Both the position numbers and the translations under genes were made by a program. The notes under the pieces were generated by a model that searched no databases, was not told the DNA's origin, and saw only the letters and a program-made list of their open reading frames with translations. 64,000 bases of DNA from Candidatus Limihabitans stercoravium (GTDB taxonomy: Bacteria > Bacillota > Clostridia > Christensenellales > CAG-314), in the NCBI GenBank assembly GCA_018715495.1, contig DVLO01000008.1:9394-73393 (forward strand), written 5' to 3'. Position 1 is the first letter of the stretch. Each line of letters starts with the position of its first letter. Below, in pieces: positions 35,767-49,036 of this stretch.

Positions 35767-37209
35767 ATGGCAGACAAGAAACAATTTGTTAAAGAAATAG
35801 CCGATTTTAACGAAGATTTTCCTCAATGGTACACCGACGTGGTGTTGAAGACTGAACTTGTAGACTACGGTCCTATCAAGGGTACAATGGTAATTCGTCC
35901 TTACGGTTACGCAATCTGGGAAAACATACAGCGTAATCTTGATGACAGATTTAAAAAGACAGGCCATCAGAACGCCTATTTCCCGTTGCTCATTCCGCAA
36001 AGTCTGTTGCAGAAAGAAGCGGAACACGTTGAAGGTTTTGCTCCCGAAGTTGCAATGGTAACGGTTGCAGGCGGTGAAAAACTTGCCGAACCTTACGTTG
36101 TACGTCCTACCAGTGAAACAATCTTCTGTACAATGTATTCCAAGTGGATAAACAGCTACCGTGATCTTCCCTTGAAGCTCAATCAGTGGGCAAACGCTGT
36201 GCGTTGGGAAAAGACCACAAGACCTTTCCTTCGTACAAGTGAATTCTTGTGGCAGGAAGGTCACACAATCCACGCCACACGTGAAGAATCCATGAAGGAA
36301 ACAATGGACATGCTGTATCTTTACAGAGATTTCGCACGTGAAGTTCTTGCAATGCCCACATTTGTTGGTCAGAAGAGTGAAAAGGAAAAATTTGCAGGTG
36401 CAGAAGCTACATTCGGTATGGAAGCAATGATGCTGGACGGCAAGAGCTTGCAGGCAGGTACAACTCACCACTTCGGTCAGAAGTTCAGCCGTGCTTACGA
36501 CATCCAGTTTTTGGACAAGGACGGTACTCACAAGTACGTATGGCAGACAAGCTGGGGCGTTTCCACACGTCTTATCGGTGCACTCATCATGGCTCACGGC
36601 GATCAACGTGGTTTGGTGTTGCCTCCTATGGTTGCGCCCATTCAGGTAATCGTTGTTCCCGTTGCAATGCACAAGGAAGGCGTCAAGGAAAAGGCTCAGG
36701 AAATCGTGGACGCACTGCTGGCTCAAGGCATCCGTGCTCAGGCTGACTTTACCGACAACTCTCCCGGTTGGAAGTTCAATCAATGGGAAATGAAGGGCGT
36801 TCCCGTTCGTCTTGAAGTTGGTCCCAGAGACATCGAACAGGGCGTAGCAACAGTAGTTACACGTCACAATCTTGAAAAGGGAACTATTTCTCTTGAAGGC
36901 TGTGCCGAAATCGTTGAACAATTGCTCAAAGACGTTCAGAACGCAATGTACGAAAAGGCTCTTGCTTTCCGCAACTCTCACGTAAGAGAAGTCCACAATA
37001 TGCAAGAACTGGAGCAAGCCTTGAACGACAAGTGCTTTGCCAAGGTTATGTGGGATCAGGATCCCGAATGCGAAGCACTGGTTAAAGAAAAGTTGCAGGC
37101 TACCGTTCGTGTAATGCTTGACGACGAAAAACCGTTCGACGACGTTTGTGGCATTTGTGGCAAAAAGAGTGACAACTTGCGTGTAGCTATCATCGCTCGT
37201 GCTTATTGA
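35767..37209 (+). CDS. proS: Prolyl-tRNA synthetase, archaeal/eukaryote-type (no INS editing domain)
   Basis: RPTSET, PFLRTSEFLWQEGHT, QTSWGVSTR, C-terminal Zn motif and ARAY end. Confidence 0.96.
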   Translation: MADKKQFVKEIADFNEDFPQWYTDVVLKTELVDYGPIKGTMVIRPYGYAIWENIQRNLDDRFKKTGHQNAYFPLLIPQSLLQKEAEHVEGFAPEVAMVTVAGGEKLAEPYVVRPTSETIFCTMYSKWINSYRDLPLKLNQWANAVRWEKTTRPFLRTSEFLWQEGHTIHATREESMKETMDMLYLYRDFAREVLAMPTFVGQKSEKEKFAGAEATFGMEAMMLDGKSLQAGTTHHFGQKFSRAYDIQFLDKDGTHKYVWQTSWGVSTRLIGALIMAHGDQRGLVLPPMVAPIQVIVVPVAMHKEGVKEKAQEIVDALLAQGIRAQADFTDNSPGWKFNQWEMKGVPVRLEVGPRDIEQGVATVVTRHNLEKGTISLEGCAEIVEQLLKDVQNAMYEKALAFRNSHVREVHNMQELEQALNDKCFAKVMWDQDPECEALVKEKLQATVRVMLDDEKPFDDVCGICGKKSDNLRVAIIARAY

Positions 37210-37242
37210 TACTCTAAGTTGGATTTGACGAATAATCAGCTT

Positions 37243-37272
37243 AAAAAGGCAGTGGAATTTCCCCTGCCTTTT
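37243..37272 (+). terminator. Intrinsic terminator after proS
   Basis: AAAAGGCAG..GGAA/TTCC..CTGCCTTTT. Confidence 0.7.
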
Positions 37273-37567
37273 ACTTTGTGTTGTATATGTTTGTGTCGGG
37301 ATGCGATTTGTATTGTGGTGTTAAATCTTTTCTTCGTGCAACTTAGCAAATAAAACCATTCGTAAGAAAAAAAATCGTAAAAAATAGTAACACATTTCTG
37401 CTAAATACATACAATACTTAATATCAACGTCCTGTTGATTCAACAAAATTCAACTTGAAGTTGGAACAAGTCAGCACAAATGTAACAAAAATTGCTTGAA
37501 AATAGCCAAAATTCCTGCATTTGGCAGTAAAAATGCAAAAAAAATGCTGAAAACATGTTGAAAATGC

Positions 37568-37596
37568 TTGCAAAGTAAAAAAAATTGTGGTAACAT
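37568..37596 (+). promoter_or_regulatory. Probable promoter of opp operon
   Basis: TTGCAA-17bp-TAACAT with extended TG; A-tract upstream. Confidence 0.55.
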
Positions 37597-37877
37597 TTCA
37601 ACATTAACAACCAAGAGAGTCAAATGGGGTTTGTTAAATTGAAAAAAAATTAACAGGTATTCTCGGCGTTGAAGCGATTAGTCTGAAACTTAATACACAA
37701 GTTTTTTGGTAACTCAGAATCATCTCTGTTTACGCTTCGCCATCCTTTTTTTCGGTTTGACAAGTCTGTAAGGTTGTTTTCTGGGTTTTTTTGTTACACT
37801 GAAAACCCATCCGCCTGTTAGTCAACGTTACAAACGTTTACTATATTTATTTTGAAATTTTTATGGAGGTAACGAAT

Positions 37878-40115
37878 ATGAAGAAAGTAAAGTTGCTCGT
37901 TGCGATGTTGCTTGTTCTCATCATGGCTGTGCCATTTGTTCTTACTGCTTGTAAGCCTTCGGGACAAGTTGACCTCAACGACGTTGTGGAGAGAACAGAC
38001 TATACGTCGGTATACGATAAGATCGGTTCTAAGGTTACCATTGATATGGTCGAAGAAGATTCTAAAGGTTTAGCCTACGCTACAGTTGACGGAGTTAAGT
38101 ACGAACTTGGTATGGACTTCCTGTCCATGGCAATGGTTTACAACACTTCCGTACCTGAAGGTAGTGAAGAGTACGAAACCAAGGAAGACGTCTACAACGA
38201 ATGGTGGAAGCTGTACATCCAGAGATGGAATATGCTTGTTCCCGAAGTTCCCTTGTATTCAAATATTTACTACGATGTTTACAACAAGGAAATTGAAGGG
38301 CTTGTAACAACTCCTTACTGGACACCATCTACGGCTATTGTAGGTGCTACAACTAAAGACTCCGCAGGCGTTGTAAACATGGGTGACGTCACAGACTTGT
38401 CCGGTTCTTTCCGTAACTCAAGTTTCGGTAAGGCTGCTCCTGGTGCAGCTGACCTTGCTGTACAAGAGTTGACAAGTGGTTACAGCACACTTTACACTGA
38501 TATGAACGGTGCTTTCCACTTTGCAGACGGATCTACAATCACCAATGAAGTCGCAGGTAAGCAGTATCAACTCAAATCAGCAGCAGTACTTGCTAAGGCT
38601 CCAGAAACTTCAACTGACGCTGAAGGTAACATCACATACAAACTTACCATCAATTCCGGATTGAAGTTCAGTGATGGTTCTGCAATCACTGCTAAAAACT
38701 ACGTTGCTTCCGTATTGGCATACAGCACAAAGGTTATGGAGGCTGCCGGCGGTAGTGCATCCTCAGGTATGTACTATGTGGGTTACGAAAAATTCAATGC
38801 AAACGTTACAGGCGGAGCAAGTGCGGTATTCTCTGGTATCAGATTGCTTAGCGACACTGAATTCTCTGTTACTATTTCTAAAGATTACGCAAACTATTAC
38901 TACGTAGACACATATGCAAGTTTCTCACCCGTTCATATGGATATGTACTTTAAGGGTGCGGACATTAAGGACGATGGTAATGGATGCTATATCACAGAAC
39001 CGTTTTATGCAAGCAGCGAAAAGGACGGAATCAAGACTTACGCAATGGCTGAAGTAATCAAGAGCAACATAAACAACACTGACGCTTCGGCAATTCCGTA
39101 TTCAGGTCCATATGTAGTTTCTAAGTATGATGCAAGCACTAAGACAGCAACTCTTACTAAGAACGAATACTATACAGGTGACCACCGTGGTAGTGCAGCT
39201 ATCCAGACAATCACATACAACAAGATTGTTTCTGAAACACAGTTGGATCAGCTGAAACAAGGTGAAATTGATATTCTTGCAGGTGTAACAGGTGCTACAG
39301 ATACAGAAGCTGCACTTGCTTTGACAAAGGGCGCAGATGCTAAATTTGCAGAAACTCACTATGACCGTGCAGGTTACGGTAAGTTGGCATTCGTTTCCGA
39401 CTTCGGACCTACAATGTTCAAGGAAGTAAGACAAGCTGTTATTTACACAATTAACCGTGAAAAGTTTGCTACAGACTTTACAGGCGGACACGGTGCTGTC
39501 GTTCACGGACCTTACTATACAGGATCTGCACAGTATCAGGCTGTAAAGGATGAAATCAAGTTGAGTACTTACAACCTCAGTGCAGAAAGTGCAATCAAGG
39601 TTCTTGAAGAGGGCGGCTGGATTTACAACGGCGAAGGCAAAGAATTCGATGCATCCAAGGACGCTGTACGTTACAAGAAGTTGAGCGGTTACGAATTGTC
39701 TTACGACAACCTGAACTTTGCATCTACAGACAACAAGTACAAGACAGTCAAGATTGATGGCGAATACTACATGCCATTGGTAATCAACTGGACAGGTACA
39801 CAACCCAACGAAGTTACAGACCTGCTGATTACAGCATGGCAAACTTCTAAGACTGCAACATCCGACATCGGTATGTACATCACTTACAAATCAGGTGAAC
39901 TCGACACAGCATTGTACGGTGACTATTACCAGATGGCAGAAAGTGGTTTCAATGGAACAGCTCGTTGCGGCGCTGTAAACTTTGCAACAGGATTTACAAG
40001 TTCTATTTACGACTACTCGTTCAACTGGACAATCAATCCTGACTTGTATGCACAGGGCTACAACATGAACATGTTCATGGACGAAGCAGACTTCTTCTCT
40101 AATTATTCCAAGTAA
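37878..40115 (+). CDS. oppA: Family-5 (OppA/DppA-type) substrate-binding lipoprotein, apparently circularly permuted
   Basis: Lipobox VLTAC; LKFSDGSAITAKNY, YSGPY, LKQGEID, VRQAV..INR motifs; first gene of oppBCDF operon. Confidence 0.85.
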   Translation: MKKVKLLVAMLLVLIMAVPFVLTACKPSGQVDLNDVVERTDYTSVYDKIGSKVTIDMVEEDSKGLAYATVDGVKYELGMDFLSMAMVYNTSVPEGSEEYETKEDVYNEWWKLYIQRWNMLVPEVPLYSNIYYDVYNKEIEGLVTTPYWTPSTAIVGATTKDSAGVVNMGDVTDLSGSFRNSSFGKAAPGAADLAVQELTSGYSTLYTDMNGAFHFADGSTITNEVAGKQYQLKSAAVLAKAPETSTDAEGNITYKLTINSGLKFSDGSAITAKNYVASVLAYSTKVMEAAGGSASSGMYYVGYEKFNANVTGGASAVFSGIRLLSDTEFSVTISKDYANYYYVDTYASFSPVHMDMYFKGADIKDDGNGCYITEPFYASSEKDGIKTYAMAEVIKSNINNTDASAIPYSGPYVVSKYDASTKTATLTKNEYYTGDHRGSAAIQTITYNKIVSETQLDQLKQGEIDILAGVTGATDTEAALALTKGADAKFAETHYDRAGYGKLAFVSDFGPTMFKEVRQAVIYTINREKFATDFTGGHGAVVHGPYYTGSAQYQAVKDEIKLSTYNLSAESAIKVLEEGGWIYNGEGKEFDASKDAVRYKKLSGYELSYDNLNFASTDNKYKTVKIDGEYYMPLVINWTGTQPNEVTDLLITAWQTSKTATSDIGMYITYKSGELDTALYGDYYQMAESGFNGTARCGAVNFATGFTSSIYDYSFNWTINPDLYAQGYNMNMFMDEADFFSNYSK

Positions 40116-40243
40116 TTAAGTGTGTTAAAGGTAGGGGCGACACCTTATGGCGTTGTCCCTACTGTTTGCGCACAGCAAGTTACAAAATAAGACAATTTGT
40201 ATCTCGCTGTGCGTAAATAAACTGATTTAAAACGGAGGACAGT

Positions 40244-41275
40244 ATGGCTAGATATATAATAAAGCGTATATTGTATATACTACTAGTGTTTATTATATTG
40301 TCGTTTTTGGTTTTCGCAATATACAACATGATACCTAACGACAAGGCAGCAGCACAGGCTCGTGCTGAAGTAGCCGCAAATAAAAATCTCAAATATGAAG
40401 AAAGATATTTGTATTGGCAGCGTACGTATGGGCTAGATGGTAATCTTTTTCAACGCTATTTTCGTTGGTTGGGACTTTATCCTTACACAGCAGTCGACGG
40501 TAGTGTGGGTGCCTTAAACGGAATGTTGCAGGGCAATCTGGGAAGTTCGATAGATAATGGCAGACCTGTTGCTGACTTAATCAAGGAACCAATGAAAAAC
40601 ACAATTTTCATGAACATATTTGCAACAGTTCTTGCTTTGGGAATTACAATTCCTTTGGGCATCTTCTGTGCTGTAAAGCGTGGTTCTAGGCGTGACGTTG
40701 TAGTGCAGATAGGAACAATTGTCGGTTACAGTATGCCTGTATTCATTGTTGCGATACTGTTCATATGGCTGTTTGCGGTAGTATTGGGGATTTTCCCCGT
40801 TTCGGGGATGGAAACACCTGGTAATAACTTTACGGGATTTCGTGCTTTTCTGGACAGAATGTACTACATGGCATTGCCTTTGATTGTAATGACATTCTGT
40901 TCGTTGGGCGGTATGACAAGATATGTCCGTGCATCCATGATTGAAGCGTTGTCTCTTGACTGCATCCGCACAGCACGTGCTAAAGGTGTCAAGGAATCGG
41001 TGGTTATTTACAGCCATGCTTGGCGTAATGCCTTGATTCCCATTGTAACACTGGTAATCGGTTGGTTCTTGAGCATTTTCTCAGGCTCAATCATGATTGA
41101 AAACATTTTCGCCTACAACGGTATCGGCAAGGTGTATTTTACAGCATTGCAAAATTCCGACAACGAAGTAGTTCTTGCACTGCAGATGTTCTACATCTTC
41201 ATTGCTTTGGCAGGCAACCTTGTAGTTGACCTTGCTTACGGATTTATTGATCCACGTATTCGTGTGTCTAAATAA
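40244..41275 (+). CDS. oppB: Peptide ABC transporter permease
   Basis: YIIKRIL, GNLGSS, RTARAKGV (EAA loop), HAWRNA, DPRIR. Confidence 0.92.
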   Translation: MARYIIKRILYILLVFIILSFLVFAIYNMIPNDKAAAQARAEVAANKNLKYEERYLYWQRTYGLDGNLFQRYFRWLGLYPYTAVDGSVGALNGMLQGNLGSSIDNGRPVADLIKEPMKNTIFMNIFATVLALGITIPLGIFCAVKRGSRRDVVVQIGTIVGYSMPVFIVAILFIWLFAVVLGIFPVSGMETPGNNFTGFRAFLDRMYYMALPLIVMTFCSLGGMTRYVRASMIEALSLDCIRTARAKGVKESVVIYSHAWRNALIPIVTLVIGWFLSIFSGSIMIENIFAYNGIGKVYFTALQNSDNEVVLALQMFYIFIALAGNLVVDLAYGFIDPRIRVSK

Positions 41276-41289
41276 GGAGGTGACAACAC

Positions 41290-43329
41290 ATGTCAGATAA
41301 AAAGTTAAATAATATTGACGAATCTAATGTTGTTGTCGATCAGGAACAGACAGCGGACAACAACGAAGTTCAGGCTGAACAGACTGAACTTCAAAAAAAG
41401 AACTTCTTTGCTTCAGTCGGATCGGGCATTGCTAATATCGGCAAGACTGTTTGGCGCTGGATCAAGCGTGCTTTCATGGGTTCACACAAAGAGTTGACTG
41501 AAACGGAAAAATTTAATGTAGAAAACATCGAAAGTCCATTGAAACAGATGACTAAGGAATTCTTCCGACGCAAGATTGCAGTTGTTGCATTGGTAGTGCT
41601 TGTGTGTATGTTTGCATTTGTGTTTATCGGACCATTGTTTGTTCCGATGGATGTAAATTACACGGATACATTGCAACAAAATATTGCCCCCAATTACACA
41701 ATGATGAAAGTGCCTAATGCATTGAAAAATGATATTAAGTCAATTTCAAGTTTTTCAAACTTCTCAGTTGGGTTGAGCAACAGTGGTAAGATGTACATCT
41801 GGGGAGACACTAAACTAAGATTGGCTGGTGTAGATCTTGCAGATTTTCCTGAGGAAATAAAGGATGACAATGTTGCTTTTGTTTCTGCGGGCAAAGATCA
41901 CATTGTTGCAATCACCAAGGAAGGTAAAGTAGTTGCTTGGGGTGCTAACAGTAACGGACAGTACGGCCACACAACAGCAATAGGTGCGGTTGAGATGCCG
42001 GAAGAGCTCATTAGCGGCACTATAGATCCATCGCAGGTTTCTCAGTTGGTTTGTGGATATCAGGTAACTGCGATTGTAATGAAAGACGGTTCGGTTTATG
42101 TTTGGGGTAACGGAGGTACAGTAAAAAATCTTGCTGAAATCGCCCAAATGACTAACGTTGCTAAAATTGAATTCAGTACTGCAACAGCGATGGCCATTCT
42201 TAAAGATGGTACATTCACCACTGGAAGTAAAGATTATTTTACAAGCGTAGTGTCTTCTGTGAATGGCACTTCCAGTAGTTTGTCCGGTTATTTGAATGGA
42301 CGTGAAGTAATAGATGTTGTGGCGGCAGACTATTCGATTGCTTTGCTGCTTGACGGCAACGAACTTGTAATGTCTGGTGTTTTTGAAAACAATGAAGACA
42401 AGATCCCGCAATTGCCCGAAGGAGAGTATTTCACTCAAATTGATGCTGGAACAAGGCATTATGTGGGTGTTACAAATAAAGGTAATTGTTACGGTTGGGG
42501 ACACAGTTTCTACGGTCAGGCTGGATTCGATCCGGATAGTGGTGCATCCAAGGTTTTTGCCGGTGCAATGCAGACTTATGTGGTAAACGAAAGTGATGAT
42601 TTGATCGCAACTCATGGGCTCAAGGGCTACTTGATGGGCACTGACGGTTCCGGAAGAGATATATTCACACGTATAGTACATGGTGGTAAGATGACAATGA
42701 CAGTCGGTGCTGTAGCCGTTATCGTATCCTCCATCATTGCTATAATCATTGGATGCTTGTCCGGCTACTTTGGCGGTTGGGTAGATATGTTGTTGATGCG
42801 TATAACTGAAATTTTTGCATCAATTCCATTCCTTCCTTTCGCAATGATGCTTTCACTGGTAATCAGAAACTACCCTGTTGACGAAACAACTAGAATTGTA
42901 ATCATCATGGTTATGCTGGGATTGTTGAGTTGGACGGGGCTTGCCCGTATGATAAGAGGTCAGGTTCTTGCCGAACGTGAAAAAGAATTTGTAATTGCCG
43001 CCAAGGCTATGGGTATAAAAGAAAATAGAATCGCATTTAAACATATTCTTCCCAATGTAATTTCGGTAATTTTGGTAAGTATGACACTGTCCTTTGCAGG
43101 ATGTCTGTTAACAGAATCTTCGCTGTCGTACCTTGGATTCGGCGTTCAGCAACCACAACCTACCTGGGGTAATATGTTAAACGGTGCAAACAATAGTATT
43201 GTTATTCAAAATTATTGGTGGCAATGGCTTTTCCCCGCTCTATTTTTGGCGATTGCAACGATATCTATCAATATTATAGGTGATACGTTGCGTGATGTAC
43301 TGGATCCCAAGAGTTCGTTGGATAAGTAA
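41290..43329 (+). CDS. oppC: Peptide ABC transporter permease with inserted RCC1-like repeats
   Basis: MGTDGSGRD, SGYFGGWVD, AAKAMG, KHILPN, PTWGNML, LRDVLDP. Confidence 0.92.
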   Translation: MSDKKLNNIDESNVVVDQEQTADNNEVQAEQTELQKKNFFASVGSGIANIGKTVWRWIKRAFMGSHKELTETEKFNVENIESPLKQMTKEFFRRKIAVVALVVLVCMFAFVFIGPLFVPMDVNYTDTLQQNIAPNYTMMKVPNALKNDIKSISSFSNFSVGLSNSGKMYIWGDTKLRLAGVDLADFPEEIKDDNVAFVSAGKDHIVAITKEGKVVAWGANSNGQYGHTTAIGAVEMPEELISGTIDPSQVSQLVCGYQVTAIVMKDGSVYVWGNGGTVKNLAEIAQMTNVAKIEFSTATAMAILKDGTFTTGSKDYFTSVVSSVNGTSSSLSGYLNGREVIDVVAADYSIALLLDGNELVMSGVFENNEDKIPQLPEGEYFTQIDAGTRHYVGVTNKGNCYGWGHSFYGQAGFDPDSGASKVFAGAMQTYVVNESDDLIATHGLKGYLMGTDGSGRDIFTRIVHGGKMTMTVGAVAVIVSSIIAIIIGCLSGYFGGWVDMLLMRITEIFASIPFLPFAMMLSLVIRNYPVDETTRIVIIMVMLGLLSWTGLARMIRGQVLAEREKEFVIAAKAMGIKENRIAFKHILPNVISVILVSMTLSFAGCLLTESSLSYLGFGVQQPQPTWGNMLNGANNSIVIQNYWWQWLFPALFLAIATISINIIGDTLRDVLDPKSSLDK

Positions 43330-43340
43330 GGAGGTATAAA

Positions 43341-44453
43341 ATGGCATTACTAGAAGTAAAAAATCTTCATACTTATTTTGAAACTCGTAAGGGTACCGTC
43401 AAGGCGGTAAACGACGTATCGTATACCGTCGAACCGGGCAGAACGCTTGGTGTTGTGGGCGAAAGCGGTAGCGGTAAGTCGGTATCGGCAATGAGCATAT
43501 TGCAACTGCTGGATGGCAACGGCTACATTGCAGGCGGAGAAATACTGTTCAACATCGAAAAGGATGGTGAGCAACACATAGTTGATCTTACTAAGTTAAA
43601 GGCAGAAACCAAGGAAAAACATCACGGTAAGAAACAACAGCCTTCCGATGAAAACACAGATACTGCAGGTCTTAGCATGTATGACATCAGAGGAAATTAC
43701 ATTTCGGTAATTTTCCAGGAACCCATGACAAGTTTGAATCCGGTGTTTACAATTTCCAGACAGTTGAGTGAACCTTTTATCATTCACCAGCACCTCAGCA
43801 AAAAAGAGGCTGCCAAGAAAGCTGTCGAGATGCTTGCGGCAGTACAAATTCCCAACCCCGAAGAGGTTGCAAGACAGTATCCTCACCAACTTTCGGGTGG
43901 TATGCGTCAGCGTGTCATGATTGCAATGGCGCTGGCTTGTAAGCCAAAGATCCTGATTGCGGATGAACCTACAACAGCTTTGGACGTTACTATACAGGCG
44001 CAGATATTGCACCTGATGAATGAGTTGCAACGTGAAAACGGCACATCAATCATCTTCATTACTCACGACCTGGGCGTAATCAATCAGATGGCGGACGACG
44101 TAGTTGTAATGTACTGCGGGCAGGTTGTGGAAAAGGCCCCTGCAAGAGTTATTTTCTCCAATTGTAAGGTGAGTCACCCTTATACCGAAGGTCTGATGTA
44201 TTCTATTCCACGTATAGACAACATTACAGACAGGCTTGAACCTATTCCTGGAACTGTACCTCACCCGTTGGCACTGCCTAAGGGATGTAAATTTGCTCCC
44301 CGTTGTAAGTATTGCACGAAAAAGTGTATGGAAGAGGAACCCACATTGCAAGAGGTTGCACCAAATCAATTGGTAAGATGTTTTTATCCCGACAAGGAGG
44401 TGAGGAAGAGTGAACAACACAAGAAAGAAGTTGTTATCAATAAAGAATCTTAA
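43341..44453 (+). CDS. oppD: Peptide ABC transporter ATPase
   Basis: GESGSGKS, IFQEPMTSLNP, LSGGMRQR, ADEPTTALD, C-terminal Cys cluster GCKFAPRC. Confidence 0.93.
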   Translation: MALLEVKNLHTYFETRKGTVKAVNDVSYTVEPGRTLGVVGESGSGKSVSAMSILQLLDGNGYIAGGEILFNIEKDGEQHIVDLTKLKAETKEKHHGKKQQPSDENTDTAGLSMYDIRGNYISVIFQEPMTSLNPVFTISRQLSEPFIIHQHLSKKEAAKKAVEMLAAVQIPNPEEVARQYPHQLSGGMRQRVMIAMALACKPKILIADEPTTALDVTIQAQILHLMNELQRENGTSIIFITHDLGVINQMADDVVVMYCGQVVEKAPARVIFSNCKVSHPYTEGLMYSIPRIDNITDRLEPIPGTVPHPLALPKGCKFAPRCKYCTKKCMEEEPTLQEVAPNQLVRCFYPDKEVRKSEQHKKEVVINKES

Positions 44454-46041
44454 AAAATACTTCCCTATCGCCAAGTCGAGTATTTTTCAGAAAGAACAAC
44501 TGTATGTAAGAGCGAATGAAGACGTTTCGTTTGACGTTTATGAAGGTGAAACAATTGGTATTGTAGGCGAATCGGGATGTGGTAAGTCTACTTTGGGACG
44601 TGTAATACTTCAACTTTATGAACAAACTGCCGGAAGTACGATGTATTACGGTAGAAGCCGTTCGGACTTTGCTCCTAAATATGTGGAACGTACTTTGAAA
44701 AATTCCAAGAAATACATTGAGAAGTACAACAAAGCACGTTTGAAAGCTGAGGAAGCGGAAAAGAAATGCGAAGAATTGGGTGAAAATGCTACATTCTTCC
44801 AATTGCAGGACAAGAACCTTGCGGTGGCTGAAATGAACACTGCGTTGCACAATGTGGCTTCCGTACTTGGTGGTTTCATGGGACTTGATGATCCCACGCA
44901 GGGAGCGGATTTGTTGCTTCGCAGACACAGGGTTCACGTTAAGGTTGCGCAGATCAAACACAAGCTCAATTCATTAGCTACCGAATTGGATATGCTTGAA
45001 GGTAAAATCAAGGCGGAACAAGAAAAACCCGAAAGTAAAAAACTTAAAGGCTTGCAAACGGCTTTGGCAAAAACAAAAGAAAAAGAAGCTCTTTTGAATG
45101 CAGAATTGGAAAAGTCTCAGTCTGAACGTGCTGTCTTGCGTGAAGAACTTGCAAATGCCCTTGAAAAATATAAGGACAACGACCAGTTCCAATATTACCA
45201 ACAGTTTGTCGACACGGGTATTGACCTTGCCCGTCTGACATACAATGAAATGCGTTTGTTGCGTAGAGACTTGCAGATCATTTTCCAGGATCCTTATTCT
45301 TCGCTCAATCCACGTATGACAATCGGTCAGATCATTGAAGAAGGCCTTGTTACTCACAAGTTTTACAAGCACGGATCTGAAAGTATGAAACAGTACATTT
45401 TGAAAGTAATGAATGACTGTGGATTGCAGGATTACATGATCCACCGTTATCCTCACCAATTCAGTGGCGGACAACGTCAGCGTATCTGTATTGCTCGTGC
45501 ATTGGCTGTAAAACCCAAGTTTGTTGTTTGTGACGAATGTGTTTCGGCATTGGACGTTTCAATTCAGTCGCAGATCATCAACCTGTTGTTGGAACTGAAG
45601 GAACGTGAAGGGCTGACATACCTGTTTATTTCGCACGACTTGTCGGTAGTGCGCTATATCTCCGACAGAATTTGTGTAATGTATCTTGGTAACATCGTGG
45701 AATTTGCCGACGCTAAAACGTTGTTCGAAGATCCACGCCATCCTTATACATTGGCATTGTTGTCAAGTATTCCTACAACCGATCCCGACGGGCTTAACAA
45801 GGAAAGTATCCTGTTGGAAGGAAATATCCCAAGCCCAATTCGTCCTCCTCAAGGTTGTAAGTTCCACACACGTTGCTACATGGCTACCGAACAGTGTAAA
45901 CGTGTACCGCCTCCATTGGTTGATCTTGGCGACGGTCACTTGGTCGCTTGTCACAATTGTGCAAGAAAGATAGATGAGAATGGAAATTACTTGTTTAAAG
46001 TTCCATCTACCAGAAAGAATTCTAAATCAGAGGTAAAGTGA
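44410..46041 (+). CDS. oppF: Peptide ABC transporter ATPase with long helical insertion
   Basis: GESGCGKS, IFQDPYSSLNP, FSGGQRQR, CDECVSALD, GCKFHTRC. Confidence 0.92.
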   Translation: MNNTRKKLLSIKNLKKYFPIAKSSIFQKEQLYVRANEDVSFDVYEGETIGIVGESGCGKSTLGRVILQLYEQTAGSTMYYGRSRSDFAPKYVERTLKNSKKYIEKYNKARLKAEEAEKKCEELGENATFFQLQDKNLAVAEMNTALHNVASVLGGFMGLDDPTQGADLLLRRHRVHVKVAQIKHKLNSLATELDMLEGKIKAEQEKPESKKLKGLQTALAKTKEKEALLNAELEKSQSERAVLREELANALEKYKDNDQFQYYQQFVDTGIDLARLTYNEMRLLRRDLQIIFQDPYSSLNPRMTIGQIIEEGLVTHKFYKHGSESMKQYILKVMNDCGLQDYMIHRYPHQFSGGQRQRICIARALAVKPKFVVCDECVSALDVSIQSQIINLLLELKEREGLTYLFISHDLSVVRYISDRICVMYLGNIVEFADAKTLFEDPRHPYTLALLSSIPTTDPDGLNKESILLEGNIPSPIRPPQGCKFHTRCYMATEQCKRVPPPLVDLGDGHLVACHNCARKIDENGNYLFKVPSTRKNSKSEVK

Positions 46042-46042
46042 A

Positions 46043-46246
46043 ATGCTGCGTTGGTGGAAGCATCTCAAAAAATTAGATAAAGAGGAATACGAACAATACA
46101 AGGAACAGATAGATAAAGAAAATTTGACTGCTAAAGATAAATTCAGTATGATTCTGTCTGCGTTTTTGGTGATTGTTTTGCCTGTTTCTCTTGGTTTGAT
46201 TGGTTTTGGGGTGTTGATACTGGCACTGTTTGGAGCATTTGGCTAA
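46043..46246 (+). CDS. Small membrane protein at end of opp operon
   Basis: ATG 1 nt after oppF stop, RBS GAGGT, charged N-terminus + hydrophobic C-terminus. Confidence 0.65.
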   Translation: MLRWWKHLKKLDKEEYEQYKEQIDKENLTAKDKFSMILSAFLVIVLPVSLGLIGFGVLILALFGAFG

Positions 46247-46299
46247 TAAATTTTGACCCCATTAAGGTGTGATTTCGCTTTGCGAAATTGCACGTGAAG

Positions 46300-46332
46300 A
46301 CCCCCTTGGAAATCCAAGGGGGTTTAATTTTT
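46300..46332 (+). terminator. Terminator of opp operon
   Basis: ACCCCCTTGGA-AA-TCCAAGGGGGT + T-rich tail. Confidence 0.8.
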
Positions 46333-46586
46333 GCGTTTATTTAAAACGTTGCGAAGGATTTGTTCTGACGTTTTTGGAAATTTTGACTTAATTCAAGTCG
46401 GTAATTGAATGTGTTGTAACCGGCAAGTGGTTTTCCTGTGTAGAGATAACTGTTCGACAACAAACGGTGTGGGATAAGCGGTGTGTCAATGGCGCAACGC
46501 AATCCCATTGTTGTGCAACCAGAATGTTTTCGGGTGCCATCCCGATTAGATTAACTTTATTTGTAAAGTTTAGTGTGTTTCCAATC

Positions 46587-46808
46587 TCATGATTTCAAGG
46601 TGATCAGCACGGCAACCGCAATTACAAGCAACACTACAAACAGAATGTTTCGTATTTTAGTGCGTGACTTTGCGTCCCCTTCGGTGTATCCCCTTGGAGT
46701 CAGTTCCCCTTTGCAGTGCGGACATTGTGTGAAGTGGTCAAGCACTTCTTTGCCGCAATGCGGACAGTTTACAAGATGTCTTTCAAGATTGGATTTTCTC
46801 ATGTTCAT
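46587..46808 (-). CDS. Small Zn-ribbon protein with C-terminal TM helix
   Basis: CPHC..CPHC, hydrophobic C-terminus, RBS GAGGTG. Confidence 0.7.
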   Translation of the reverse strand: MNMRKSNLERHLVNCPHCGKEVLDHFTQCPHCKGELTPRGYTEGDAKSRTKIRNILFVVLLVIAVAVLITLKS

Positions 46809-47143
46809 TCACCTCATTGCCATTTTATCATTTCTCCGTAACTTTGGCAATAACTGTCGGTAAAGTTGTGGGTGAATTGTATTTTGTGTAATTATTTTTG
46901 GTTAAAATCTTTGTTGCTGTTGCGATTTATCTAAAGGACAACAAAGTGATGTGCTGTTTCCATTGGTTGTTTACTTATTATCATTGTTCTTCAATGTGTA
47001 AGCAATTTGCTGTAATTGATGTGGTAAGTAAAGCGTATTTGTTTGTTATCGTTAACTTCAAGTAGAAATTTCTTATTTCCAATAGATACGTTTTTAGCAT
47101 TGTCAGTGTTTAGGACAGTGGTGTGAAAAACTGTAAAGAGGTT

Positions 47144-47583
47144 ATTCCTTATTATATATAGATATACTCCTTTGTTGTATGTAACGGCGTGTCGGTTGTC
47201 TTGTGGTTGGTTGCGTTTGTTTGTTGTCGGTTAGTGGTGGTGGAAAATCTTCCCCATATGCGTAAACTACATTATGGGTTGCGCTGTCTGTGTAACAGTG
47301 TTGTGAAGATGGTGTGTAGCCGTTATTTGATATATAAAGATATCGTTTGTTTCGTTGTTTTGCGTTGGCGTTGCTGTTGCGCATCTGATTGTATCGCATC
47401 TGTTTGTGGTTGGGAGTTTGTTTCGGCTGTTTTGTATCTTGTTAAAAGTGCATTTTTTATTGTAGGTAGTGGTCGGTGGAAATTCCTTATTTATATATAG
47501 ATATACTTTATACGCTATCGTGGAAGTTAGTTTGACGGTGGTGTGTCAATTGAAAGGTAAGCCATTCCTTATTATATATAGAT
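47144..47583 (+). repeat. Dispersed direct repeat ATTCCTTATT(T)ATATATAGAT, three copies
   Basis: Copies at 47144, 47482, 47564. Confidence 0.85.
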
Positions 47584-47778
47584 GTGTTCCACTGTCTTCG
47601 TAGTCGTTAAGTGTGTCGTGAGTGTGTCAGTGCTGTTGTGCATGCGGTTTTTCAATGGTTTGCTTTCGGCGTCGGGATAACAAAAAAACGGGAAAATGCC
47701 CCTCTGACACAAACTCTTGACAAAAAAGTCCACTCTAAAAAAATATTCAATTTGTGCCAAAAAAATGTCAAAAAATAT

Positions 47779-47808
47779 TTGACAGCCTATTGACTGTTGT
47801 GATATCAT
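47779..47808 (+). promoter_or_regulatory. Promoter of S10 operon
   Basis: TTGACA-18bp-TATCAT with extended TG. Confidence 0.6.
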
Positions 47809-47815
47809 ATACAAG

Positions 47816-47996
47816 CTGTGGAATATGGCTTGAAGTGTGAGGTTACTGAGATAACAGAAAACTTACACCTACATAGCATCGCCGGTAAAGAGCGATGTGA
47901 CCGAATCATGGCGTTGGTTGATAAGTGACAAGGCCTGTCAAACTGTCAGTTGATGCAATTTAGGCAAATGAAAATTTGCTTTATAAAAAGCCACAG
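47816..47996 (+). ncRNA. Putative structured S10-operon ribosomal leader
   Basis: CTGTGG/CCACAG closing stem, internal stems GTGTGAG/CTTACAC and CATCGC/GCGATG; lies between promoter and rpsJ. Confidence 0.5.
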
Positions 47997-48069
47997 TATG
48001 ATACACACGGAAGTGTTGTCAGCGAAAAGGGATTCGGCAATAAAATCATATTTATAAGGAGAGAACAAA

Positions 48070-48378
48070 ATGGCTAACCAAAGAATCAGAATTAAGTTGA
48101 AGTCTTACGACCACAATTTAGTCGATCTTGCTTGCACAAAGATTGTGGAAGCTGCAAAGAAGATGGGAAGTACTGTTTCCGGTCCTATCCCACTGCCCAC
48201 AGAAAGGGAAATCGTAACAGTGTTGCGTGCAACTCACAAATATAAGGATGCACGTGAACAATTCGAATTGAGAACTTACAAGCGTTTGATTGACATCTAC
48301 AGTCCCAATGCCAAGACAGTAGACAGCTTGACAAAGCTGGATCTGCCTGCCGGTATCGACGTAAAGATCAAACTGTAA
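48070..48378 (+). CDS. rpsJ: 30S ribosomal protein S10
   Basis: [23 protein letters not shown]. Confidence 0.98.
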
Positions 48379-48403
48379 AATACAACGGAGGTGAACTTTA
48401 TCA

Positions 48404-49036
48404 ATGAATAAAGCAATCATAGGAAAGAAGTTGGGCATGACACAGGTGTTCATGCAAGACGGAACAATGGTTCCGGTAACAGTAGTACAGGCAGGACCTT
48501 GCACAGTAGTACAAAAGAAGACTGTTGAAAGAGACGGTTACAGTGCAATTCAGCTTGGTTTCGAAGAAGTAGCTGACAGAAAGCTCAACAAGCCCGAACA
48601 AGGACACTTGAAGAAGGCTAATGCAGGTTCTTTGAAACACCTTAAGGAATTCAAGTTGGACAATGCAGATGCATTGGAACTTGGCGCTAAGATTGAATGT
48701 GACGTATTTGCCGAAGGCGACTTCGTAGACGTAACAGGAACAACTAAAGGTCGTGGTTTCACAGGCGTAATCAAGCGTTGGAACCAAGGCAGATTGAAGG
48801 AAACCCACGGTGTGGGCCCTGTACACAGAGAAGTTGGTTCAATGGGTGCAAACAGCACACCTTCACGTGTATTGCCCGGTAAGCACATGCCCGGTCAGTA
48901 CGGTGTTGAACAAGTAACAGTACTTAACCTTTCCGTAATCAAGGTTGACAAGGAAAGAGGCGTGCTTCTCATCAAGGGTGCTATCCCCGGTGCGAAGAAC
49001 AGCATTGTGTACGTCCGCAATGCCGTTAAGAAATAA
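48404..49036 (+). CDS. rplC: 50S ribosomal protein L3
   Basis: GKKLGMTQ, KGRGFTGVIKRW. Confidence 0.98.
   Translation: MNKAIIGKKLGMTQVFMQDGTMVPVTVVQAGPCTVVQKKTVERDGYSAIQLGFEEVADRKLNKPEQGHLKKANAGSLKHLKEFKLDNADALELGAKIECDVFAEGDFVDVTGTTKGRGFTGVIKRWNQGRLKETHGVGPVHREVGSMGANSTPSRVLPGKHMPGQYGVEQVTVLNLSVIKVDKERGVLLIKGAIPGAKNSIVYVRNAVKK

Follow-up and report, generated by a model that had tools for sequence, protein, structure and literature searches.

Does the open reading frame (ORF) at 37878-40115 of the window analysed here, a 64,000-nucleotide (nt) stretch of contig DVLO01000008.1 from Candidatus Limihabitans stercoravium (assembly GCA_018715495.1), encode a substrate-binding protein whose chain begins with what is elsewhere its end? 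An earlier note on this DNA had read the product as an OppA-type protein that is naturally circularly permuted, with the C-terminal module inserted after the lipid anchor and ahead of the first strand. Alignments to the closest canonical relative and to a solved OppA agree with that proposal, and the ORF very probably encodes the lipid-anchored substrate receptor of an Opp-type ATP-binding cassette (ABC) importer, of the family-5 (cluster C) fold and with a circularly permuted chain.

A receptor chain in the order C-A-B

The gene and the three blocks of its product, named after their order in canonical relatives (A-B-C), are located as follows.

37865..37869, + strand: ribosome-binding site GGAGG, 8 nt 5' of the ATG at 37878, read from the sequence
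37878..40115, + strand: receptor ORF, translated as a lipoprotein of 745 amino acids (aa), solute-binding family 5; stop codon 40113-40115
37878..37952, + strand: lipoprotein signal peptide, residues 1-25, with an LTAC lipobox at its end and Cys25 as lipid anchor
37968..38342, + strand: block C, residues 31-155, the moved module, C-terminal in canonical relatives (matches to P0128 and 9p48)
38355..39332, + strand: block A, residues 160-485, the canonical N-terminal strand and the N-lobe (domains I and II)
39354..40097, + strand: block B, residues 493-740, comprising most of the C-lobe (domain III), with 5 further residues before the stop codon

The start at 37878 is preferred over a longer ORF from 37863 because of the GGAGG motif 8 nt upstream, and the 98%-identical homologue P0002 is likewise 745 aa long. 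By what we take to be the lipobox consensus, the LTAC motif and Cys25 mark the product as a bacterial lipoprotein; Cys25 is invariant across 34 family members, and a lipobox is present in 137 of 139 query-like proteins. The protein scores 111.3 bits against the Pfam profile SBP_bac_5 (PF00496), well above the gathering cut-off of 32.4 that places it in family 5 (cluster C), with residues 238-589 covering profile positions 6-286 of 368. All the motifs quoted in the earlier note lie in the translation where it had put them: GMDFLSMAM...AIVGA at residues 78-157 (nt 38109-38348), the usual first strand, VVNMGDVTDLSGSF, at 165-178, FSDGSAITA at 264-272, GPY at 410-412 and VRQA at 517-520, with YDYSFNW...GYNMNMFMDEADFFSNYSK as the end of the chain.

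The evidence for the permutation is homology that does not run in one direction, to a degree that chance cannot account for. Query residues 31-155 match residues 615-739 of P0128, the closest canonical relative (745 aa), at E 2e-30, while query 153-739 matches P0128 42-601 colinearly at E 1e-123; BLASTP returns the same non-colinear pattern for this pair, and it recurs in P0133, P0138, P0140, P0143, P0144 and many others. Among PDB sequences searched with phmmer, the best match is the 562-aa OppA 9p48, in which residues 96-306 correspond to query 321-548 and residues 504-558 to query 103-157, and a profile of the 34 family members finds 9p48 residues 504-560 (of 562) with an independent E-value of 9e-8. 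In these hidden Markov model alignments the front of the query falls on the C-terminus of its homologues and residues 153-739 align with the homologues from their N-terminus, in agreement with the assignment of the N-terminal segment that the earlier note had made from family motifs. Its estimate of about 80 moved residues needs revision: a C-terminal block has indeed moved, but the P0128 match puts its size at about 125 residues (31-155), of which the final 55-80 are the portion common to generic OppA proteins. The query thus departs from the canonical chain order, in which the first strand is N-terminal and the final helices and strands are C-terminal, in topology and not in homology.

Chain orders among relatives

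Homologues were sought among 1.84 billion representatives, giving 787 matches at E <= 1e-3, and the matched stretches were recomputed for the best 150. A census of block order in these 150, with C taken as query 31-155, A as 160-485 and B as 493-740, gave the following counts.

A-B-C: 73 of 150
A-B-C, with block B in two aligned stretches: 22 of 150 (canonical total 95)
C-A-B: 20 of 150, including P0203 (different break point) and the fusion protein P0137
B-C-A: 2 of 150
Tandem A-B-C-A-B-C: 2 of 150
A-B-C-A-B: 1 of 150
B-C-A-B: 1 of 150
Fragments: 29 of 150 (AB 7, CA 7, C 7, A 3, B 2, BC 1, AC 1, BBC 1)

A third cyclic order, B-C-A, is found in P0127 and P0132, each with its own lipobox directly before block B and with no signal peptide at the C-to-A joint; such a chain would open between the positions of query residues 485 and 493, either at the first crossover between the lobes or next to it. 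This order was absent from 400 Clostridia genomes searched, in which the 18 genomes with a match comprised 4 with C-A-B, 3 with clear A-B-C and the rest with A and B only or a single block. The metagenome contigs L097, L098 and L105 carry this order in intact genes whose products have 733-745 aa and are 69-70% identical to P0127, and the 20 metagenome loci divide into 3 B-C-A, 6 C-A-B and 11 A-B-C.

Two further apparent break points fall inside block B, each seen in a single lipobox-bearing database protein from a distant canonical clade and at the protein level only: P0203 begins at the motif that ends the query, and P0208, which has a long Ser/Pro linker in front, at the VRYKK loop. Larger architectures also occur. 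P0134 combines SLH domains with two tandem family-5 copies in one ORF, P0148 and P0263 are receptors with cohesin, dockerin and Listeria-Bacteroides repeats, and in P0137 a C-A-B receptor comes after a BlaR1-type M56 membrane domain.

The order of the query is widespread among its near relatives. Of 7999 candidates scored in a word-indexed search, 1582 proteins had E <= 1e-3; the top 120 of these are 54-98% identical to the query over 95-100% of its length, and the query and these 120 (121/121) are colinear with the family profile in one match. In species-representative genomes, relatives are encoded at 292 of 332 pattern hits; 79 loci were kept, and all 79 give a single colinear tblastn match to the query. 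These loci lie in metagenome-assembled genomes of uncultured gut and rumen Clostridia (titles Oscillospiraceae, Faecousia, Ca. Scatosoma, Acutalibacteraceae, Acetatifactor and similar). The source genome (1.7 Mb, 94% complete) has only one other family-5 gene, on the minus strand of another contig (G000 contig C30, locus L002:736-3372), whose 878-aa product has a lipobox and the canonical order and owes its length to inserts; BLASTP of the query against this paralogue gives weak colinear matches in blocks A and B and none for the module, the pair being too distant.

In a FastTree phylogeny of 116 rows, built on the A and B columns, the query falls in a 38-row clade (support 0.98) with canonical proteins at its base. 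An IQ-TREE quick search (LG+C20 with posterior mean site frequencies (PMSF), 48 rows, 560 columns, rooted on 10 canonical outgroup rows) recovered a 30-row clade, nested in a canonical grade, with a Shimodaira-Hasegawa-like approximate likelihood ratio test (SH-aLRT) support of 84. It contains 25 C-A-B rows with one common break point, 2 B-C-A, 2 fragments and 1 A-B-C row, the canonical P0128, which nests within the permuted rows. P0132 (B-C-A) and P0129 (C-A-B) are sisters with support 100, P0128 pairs with P0127 with support 93, and this tree requires a minimum of 4 order changes. The signal peptides of P0129 and P0132 are 90% identical and their mature parts 56-60%, which suggests either re-permutation behind a retained leader or exchange of the 5' end.

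The query-like order may have arisen several times from canonical ancestors, as opposed to a single time with subsequent returns to A-B-C and steps on to B-C-A. The tree does require at least 4 changes, and P0203 and P0208 show other break points in distant canonical clades; set against this, 25 query-like rows with one break point sit in the one 30-row clade, and separating the 27 permuted rows from the 18 canonical rows costs 35.9 log-likelihood units. The approximately unbiased (AU) test rejects the placement of P0128 outside the permuted rows (p 0.0117, an optimistic value because the tree was already known when the groups were defined), as fits a change back to the canonical order. We consider multiple origins unlikely and favour a single origin of C-A-B followed by further changes. 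The permuted order would most likely have come from a duplication in tandem or a fusion, after which both ends were lost, with several order changes in the lineage, and tandem double receptors such as P0134 are possible intermediates.

Fold, chain ends and competing explanations

An AlphaFold2 model built from the 34-row alignment has a predicted local distance difference test (pLDDT) of 88.4 and a predicted template modelling score (pTM) of 0.85, with residues 31-160 at 87-95 and block C at 90-95. Foldseek places this model with NikA, OppA and AppA at E ~1e-14, and VIA-align gives Z 16-17.7 with 400-450 residues aligned at a root-mean-square deviation of 3.4-6.5; model and searches alike show the bilobed three-domain fold of solved OppA, DppA and NikA. 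The VIA-align span nearly always runs from model residue 156-165 to 738-741, against residue 1 to ~446/517 (Salmonella OppA) or ~470 (DppA) of the solved chains. The last 60-70 residues of the solved chains and the first 155 of the model are left out, as is expected because a sequential aligner was applied to a permuted pair.

In the canonical order, block A would hold the first strand and the N-lobe, block B most of the C-lobe, and block C the last C-lobe helices together with the strands that return to the N-lobe. In the query the old C-terminus would be joined to the old N-terminus by some 8 linker residues, with the newly opened ends between B and C. Block C would then start in the C-lobe, pass over to the N-lobe once past the PLY strand and lead into the first strand, leaving both inter-lobe crossovers intact. 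The break point presumably lies in a C-lobe loop, by the OppA domain limits that we assume; a literature search for these limits found none. It falls after the region of E. coli DppA D436 and before the final helices, and the accessible text of one study describes D436 as a C-lobe ligand residue and R383 and D436 as conserved charged residues that hold the peptide termini (PMC12136057). It is plausible, and most likely, that the lipid tether has moved to the C-lobe and leaves the fold from there. From the Cys to the position of S44 this tether measures 19 residues in the query and a median of 29 (interquartile range (IQR) 21-41) in 137 of 139 query-like proteins; the linker of canonical relatives has a median of 31 residues (IQR 12.5-44; 56 of 71 rows), a measure of wide spread that is not equivalent to the Cys-S44 distance.

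Several observations weigh against a permuted cluster C receptor. For residues 31-102 no sequence counterpart was detected in solved structures, and only the clade's own canonical members match them. The receptor reaches no NCBIfam cut-off, its score against the Opp4A equivalog (NF045467) being 45.6 bits against the 650 required. The structural comparison consists of sequential alignment ranges, and the N-module modelled alone (residues 28-160; pLDDT 86.6) retrieved no OppA C-terminus, its best Z of 2.9 among Foldseek candidates and 4.3 among 48,161 representatives falling on unrelated chains, although a two-domain fragment is a poor probe. The tandem fusions found are not direct ancestors of the permuted clade. 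The lobe to which the new ends would belong follows from alignment end points, generally assumed OppA domain boundaries and one published ligand residue.

Might the N-terminal 130 residues then be an unrelated domain, added to a binding protein whose own C-terminus has simply been lost? Pfam covers residues 238-589 only, and the module folded alone is very confident at residues 38-123, yet matched no OppA chain. Canonical relatives nevertheless have a homologue of the entire module in their last 125 residues (2e-30), the 9p48 C-terminus matches it too (9e-8), and among the best 150 representatives most canonical ones show the module match at their own C-terminus beside the main colinear match, which makes an unrelated domain highly improbable. 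We give just as little credence to a partial duplication, with an extra block C in front and a diverged copy still at the end. Tandem double binding proteins do occur among the relatives (P0134, P0148, P0169), but the query ends only 5-6 residues past its last aligned residue (739-740 of 745, P0128 residue 601), so that there is no second copy of the module, where P0128 runs on for another 140 residues. An assembly artefact, frameshift or fusion of neighbouring genes can be dismissed as next to impossible, since even with sources that are all metagenome-assembled genomes or metagenomes the same order stands in all 121 near homologues and in all 79 loci of different species-level genomes, and the query gene is one open frame that has a ribosome-binding site, a signal peptide and a lipobox, with no second signal peptide at the C-to-A junction. 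We thus retain the circularly permuted receptor as our reading of this gene.

Operon and comparison with known receptors

Four genes for an Opp-type translocator follow the receptor gene.

40244..41275, + strand: OppB-type permease; Pfam BPD_transp_1 and BPD_transp_1_N, best NCBIfam model Opp4B, under cut-off
41290..43329, + strand: OppC-type permease, 679 aa; Pfam OppC_N at 82-134, RCC1 repeats from ~139, BPD_transp_1 at 484-674
43341..44453, + strand: OppD-type ATPase; Pfam ABC_tran and oligo_HPY, NCBIfam OppD-like
44410..46041, + strand: OppF-type ATPase, 543 aa as listed, start uncertain; ABC_tran in 2 stretches and oligo_HPY, NCBIfam OppF/DppF-like from ~269

The receptor gene thus adjoins OppBCDF-type genes, as is characteristic of family 5, and an OppB-like match lies directly 3' of it in 72 of the 79 genome loci. 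The OppC-type permease carries an insert of ~300 residues of RCC1 repeats (beta-propeller-like) between its first membrane helix (OppC_N) and the remaining membrane domain, probably outside the cell. This insert is covered in 71 of the 79 query-like loci, the contig ending too early in the other 8, and in 17 of the 20 metagenome loci; in 65 of 79 there are matches to all of OppB, OppC with the insert, OppD and OppF. The three canonical-order genome loci L091-L093 are followed by the same genes, and a query-type operon follows the B-C-A loci L097, L098 and L105 and the canonical metagenome loci L106-L116. The earlier note had proposed that moving the tether would change how the receptor docks on the permease; because all three orders precede the same OppB, OppC(RCC1), OppD and OppF genes, a changed docking or partnership is not supported.

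The permeases and ATPases are nearest to the NCBIfam Opp4, Opp and Dpp models, all under their cut-offs, and the ligand is probably an oligopeptide, which is the family default and not a result. It would be bound between the lobes and handed to the OppB/OppC(RCC1)/OppD/OppF translocator that the query shares with its canonical-order orthologues. More speculatively, the clade may be a hot spot of repeated circular permutation through tandem duplication and end loss, in which three orders work with one type of translocator, the B-C-A form has a single covalent hinge connection, tether position is a selected trait and the RCC1 propeller of OppC is perhaps involved; we regard this as possible and hold it tentatively.

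The OppF-type ATPase also matches the Mollicutes-type OppF and OppD models of NCBIfam, and it has a large insert or N-terminal extension; about 60% of the protein is covered in a subset of related loci, which marks a variable part. Between the prolyl-tRNA synthetase gene and the receptor gene lies a 668-nt gap (37210-37877) of lower G+C with weak promoter-like sites only, and ~2.3 kb at 46042-48400 hold no ORF above 103 aa, have a G+C content of 0.38-0.39 against 0.43 and contain few short repeats. At gathering thresholds Rfam matched nothing in 37100-48500, these two stretches included, and a scan for terminators gave nothing convincing in the interval from the receptor gene to OppB.

Few binding proteins are as well studied as the cluster C receptors, whose chain order is usually regarded as fixed. 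Like OppA (closest solved structure 9p48), DppA, AppA and NikA, the query is an SBP_bac_5 protein with a bilobed three-domain fold, a lipoprotein anchor and an Opp-type operon. It differs from canonical OppA in its order, C-A-B and not A-B-C, in ends that lie between B and C and not on the N-lobe, and in being ~200 residues longer than a typical OppA. The same clade contains the canonical-order orthologues P0128, P0133 and the loci L091-L093, which have a lipobox and the same operon with an RCC1-bearing OppC, are 42-46% identical block for block, and differ from the query only in block order and anchor position. Within the clade, orthologues of 42-60% identity are distinguished mainly by the points at which the chain starts and ends, and hence by where the tether exits and, for the B-C-A form, possibly by the number of strands that connect the lobes. 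Such proteins offer a natural control on the importance of the hinge connections for closure and, because tandem double receptors occur within the same family, on the origin of circular permutations. They also carry a risk for annotation: because Pfam covers only the middle of the protein, permuted receptors can be misread as truncated or as bearing an unknown N-terminal domain.

The position of the anchor may be considered against DppABCD of M. tuberculosis. In the accessible text on that complex, an N-terminal loop and lipid anchor exit the N-lobe of DppA and are held by DppB helix 2, an arrangement proposed as necessary for assembly (PMC10954201). As far as that text describes it, this DppA resembles the query in being a lipoprotein of cluster C that acts as the receptor for a type I importer (PMC10954201); in the query the N-terminus would sit on another part of the fold, a difference that could matter. 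The permuted clade could serve as a natural control here too, to learn if the permease must recognise the N-terminal loop and anchor for the complex to assemble, as has been suggested for the mycobacterial importer (PMC10954201).

Our literature search, with subscription journals largely outside it, found no relevant paper on 9p48 and no permuted OppA or cluster C receptor; the only precedent for natural permutation that it returned is the cluster B protein TpMglB-2 (PMC4990184). In the accessible text of that study, TpMglB-2 (Tp0684) of Treponema pallidum is assigned to a proposed 'Type Ic / Cluster Bc' of circularly permuted sugar-binding lipoproteins (PMC4990184). There, as in the query, the binding protein of an ABC importer is naturally permuted, and the proteins are tethered lipoproteins, in spirochaetes and Gram-positive gut bacteria; binding and closure are kept, and the authors raise tethering as a possible driver of the change (PMC4990184). 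TpMglB-2 is unlike the query in belonging to cluster B and not C, in having the first three N-lobe strands moved to its C-terminus and in requiring a fourth hinge crossover; its permuted parts are poorly similar in sequence to canonical ones, and three cyclic orders in one operon type are not reported in the text available (PMC4990184). With its cluster C fold and Pfam family, and with the C-terminal module as the moved block, the query falls outside 'Type Ic / Cluster Bc', and the likeness between the two permuted receptors is one of principle.

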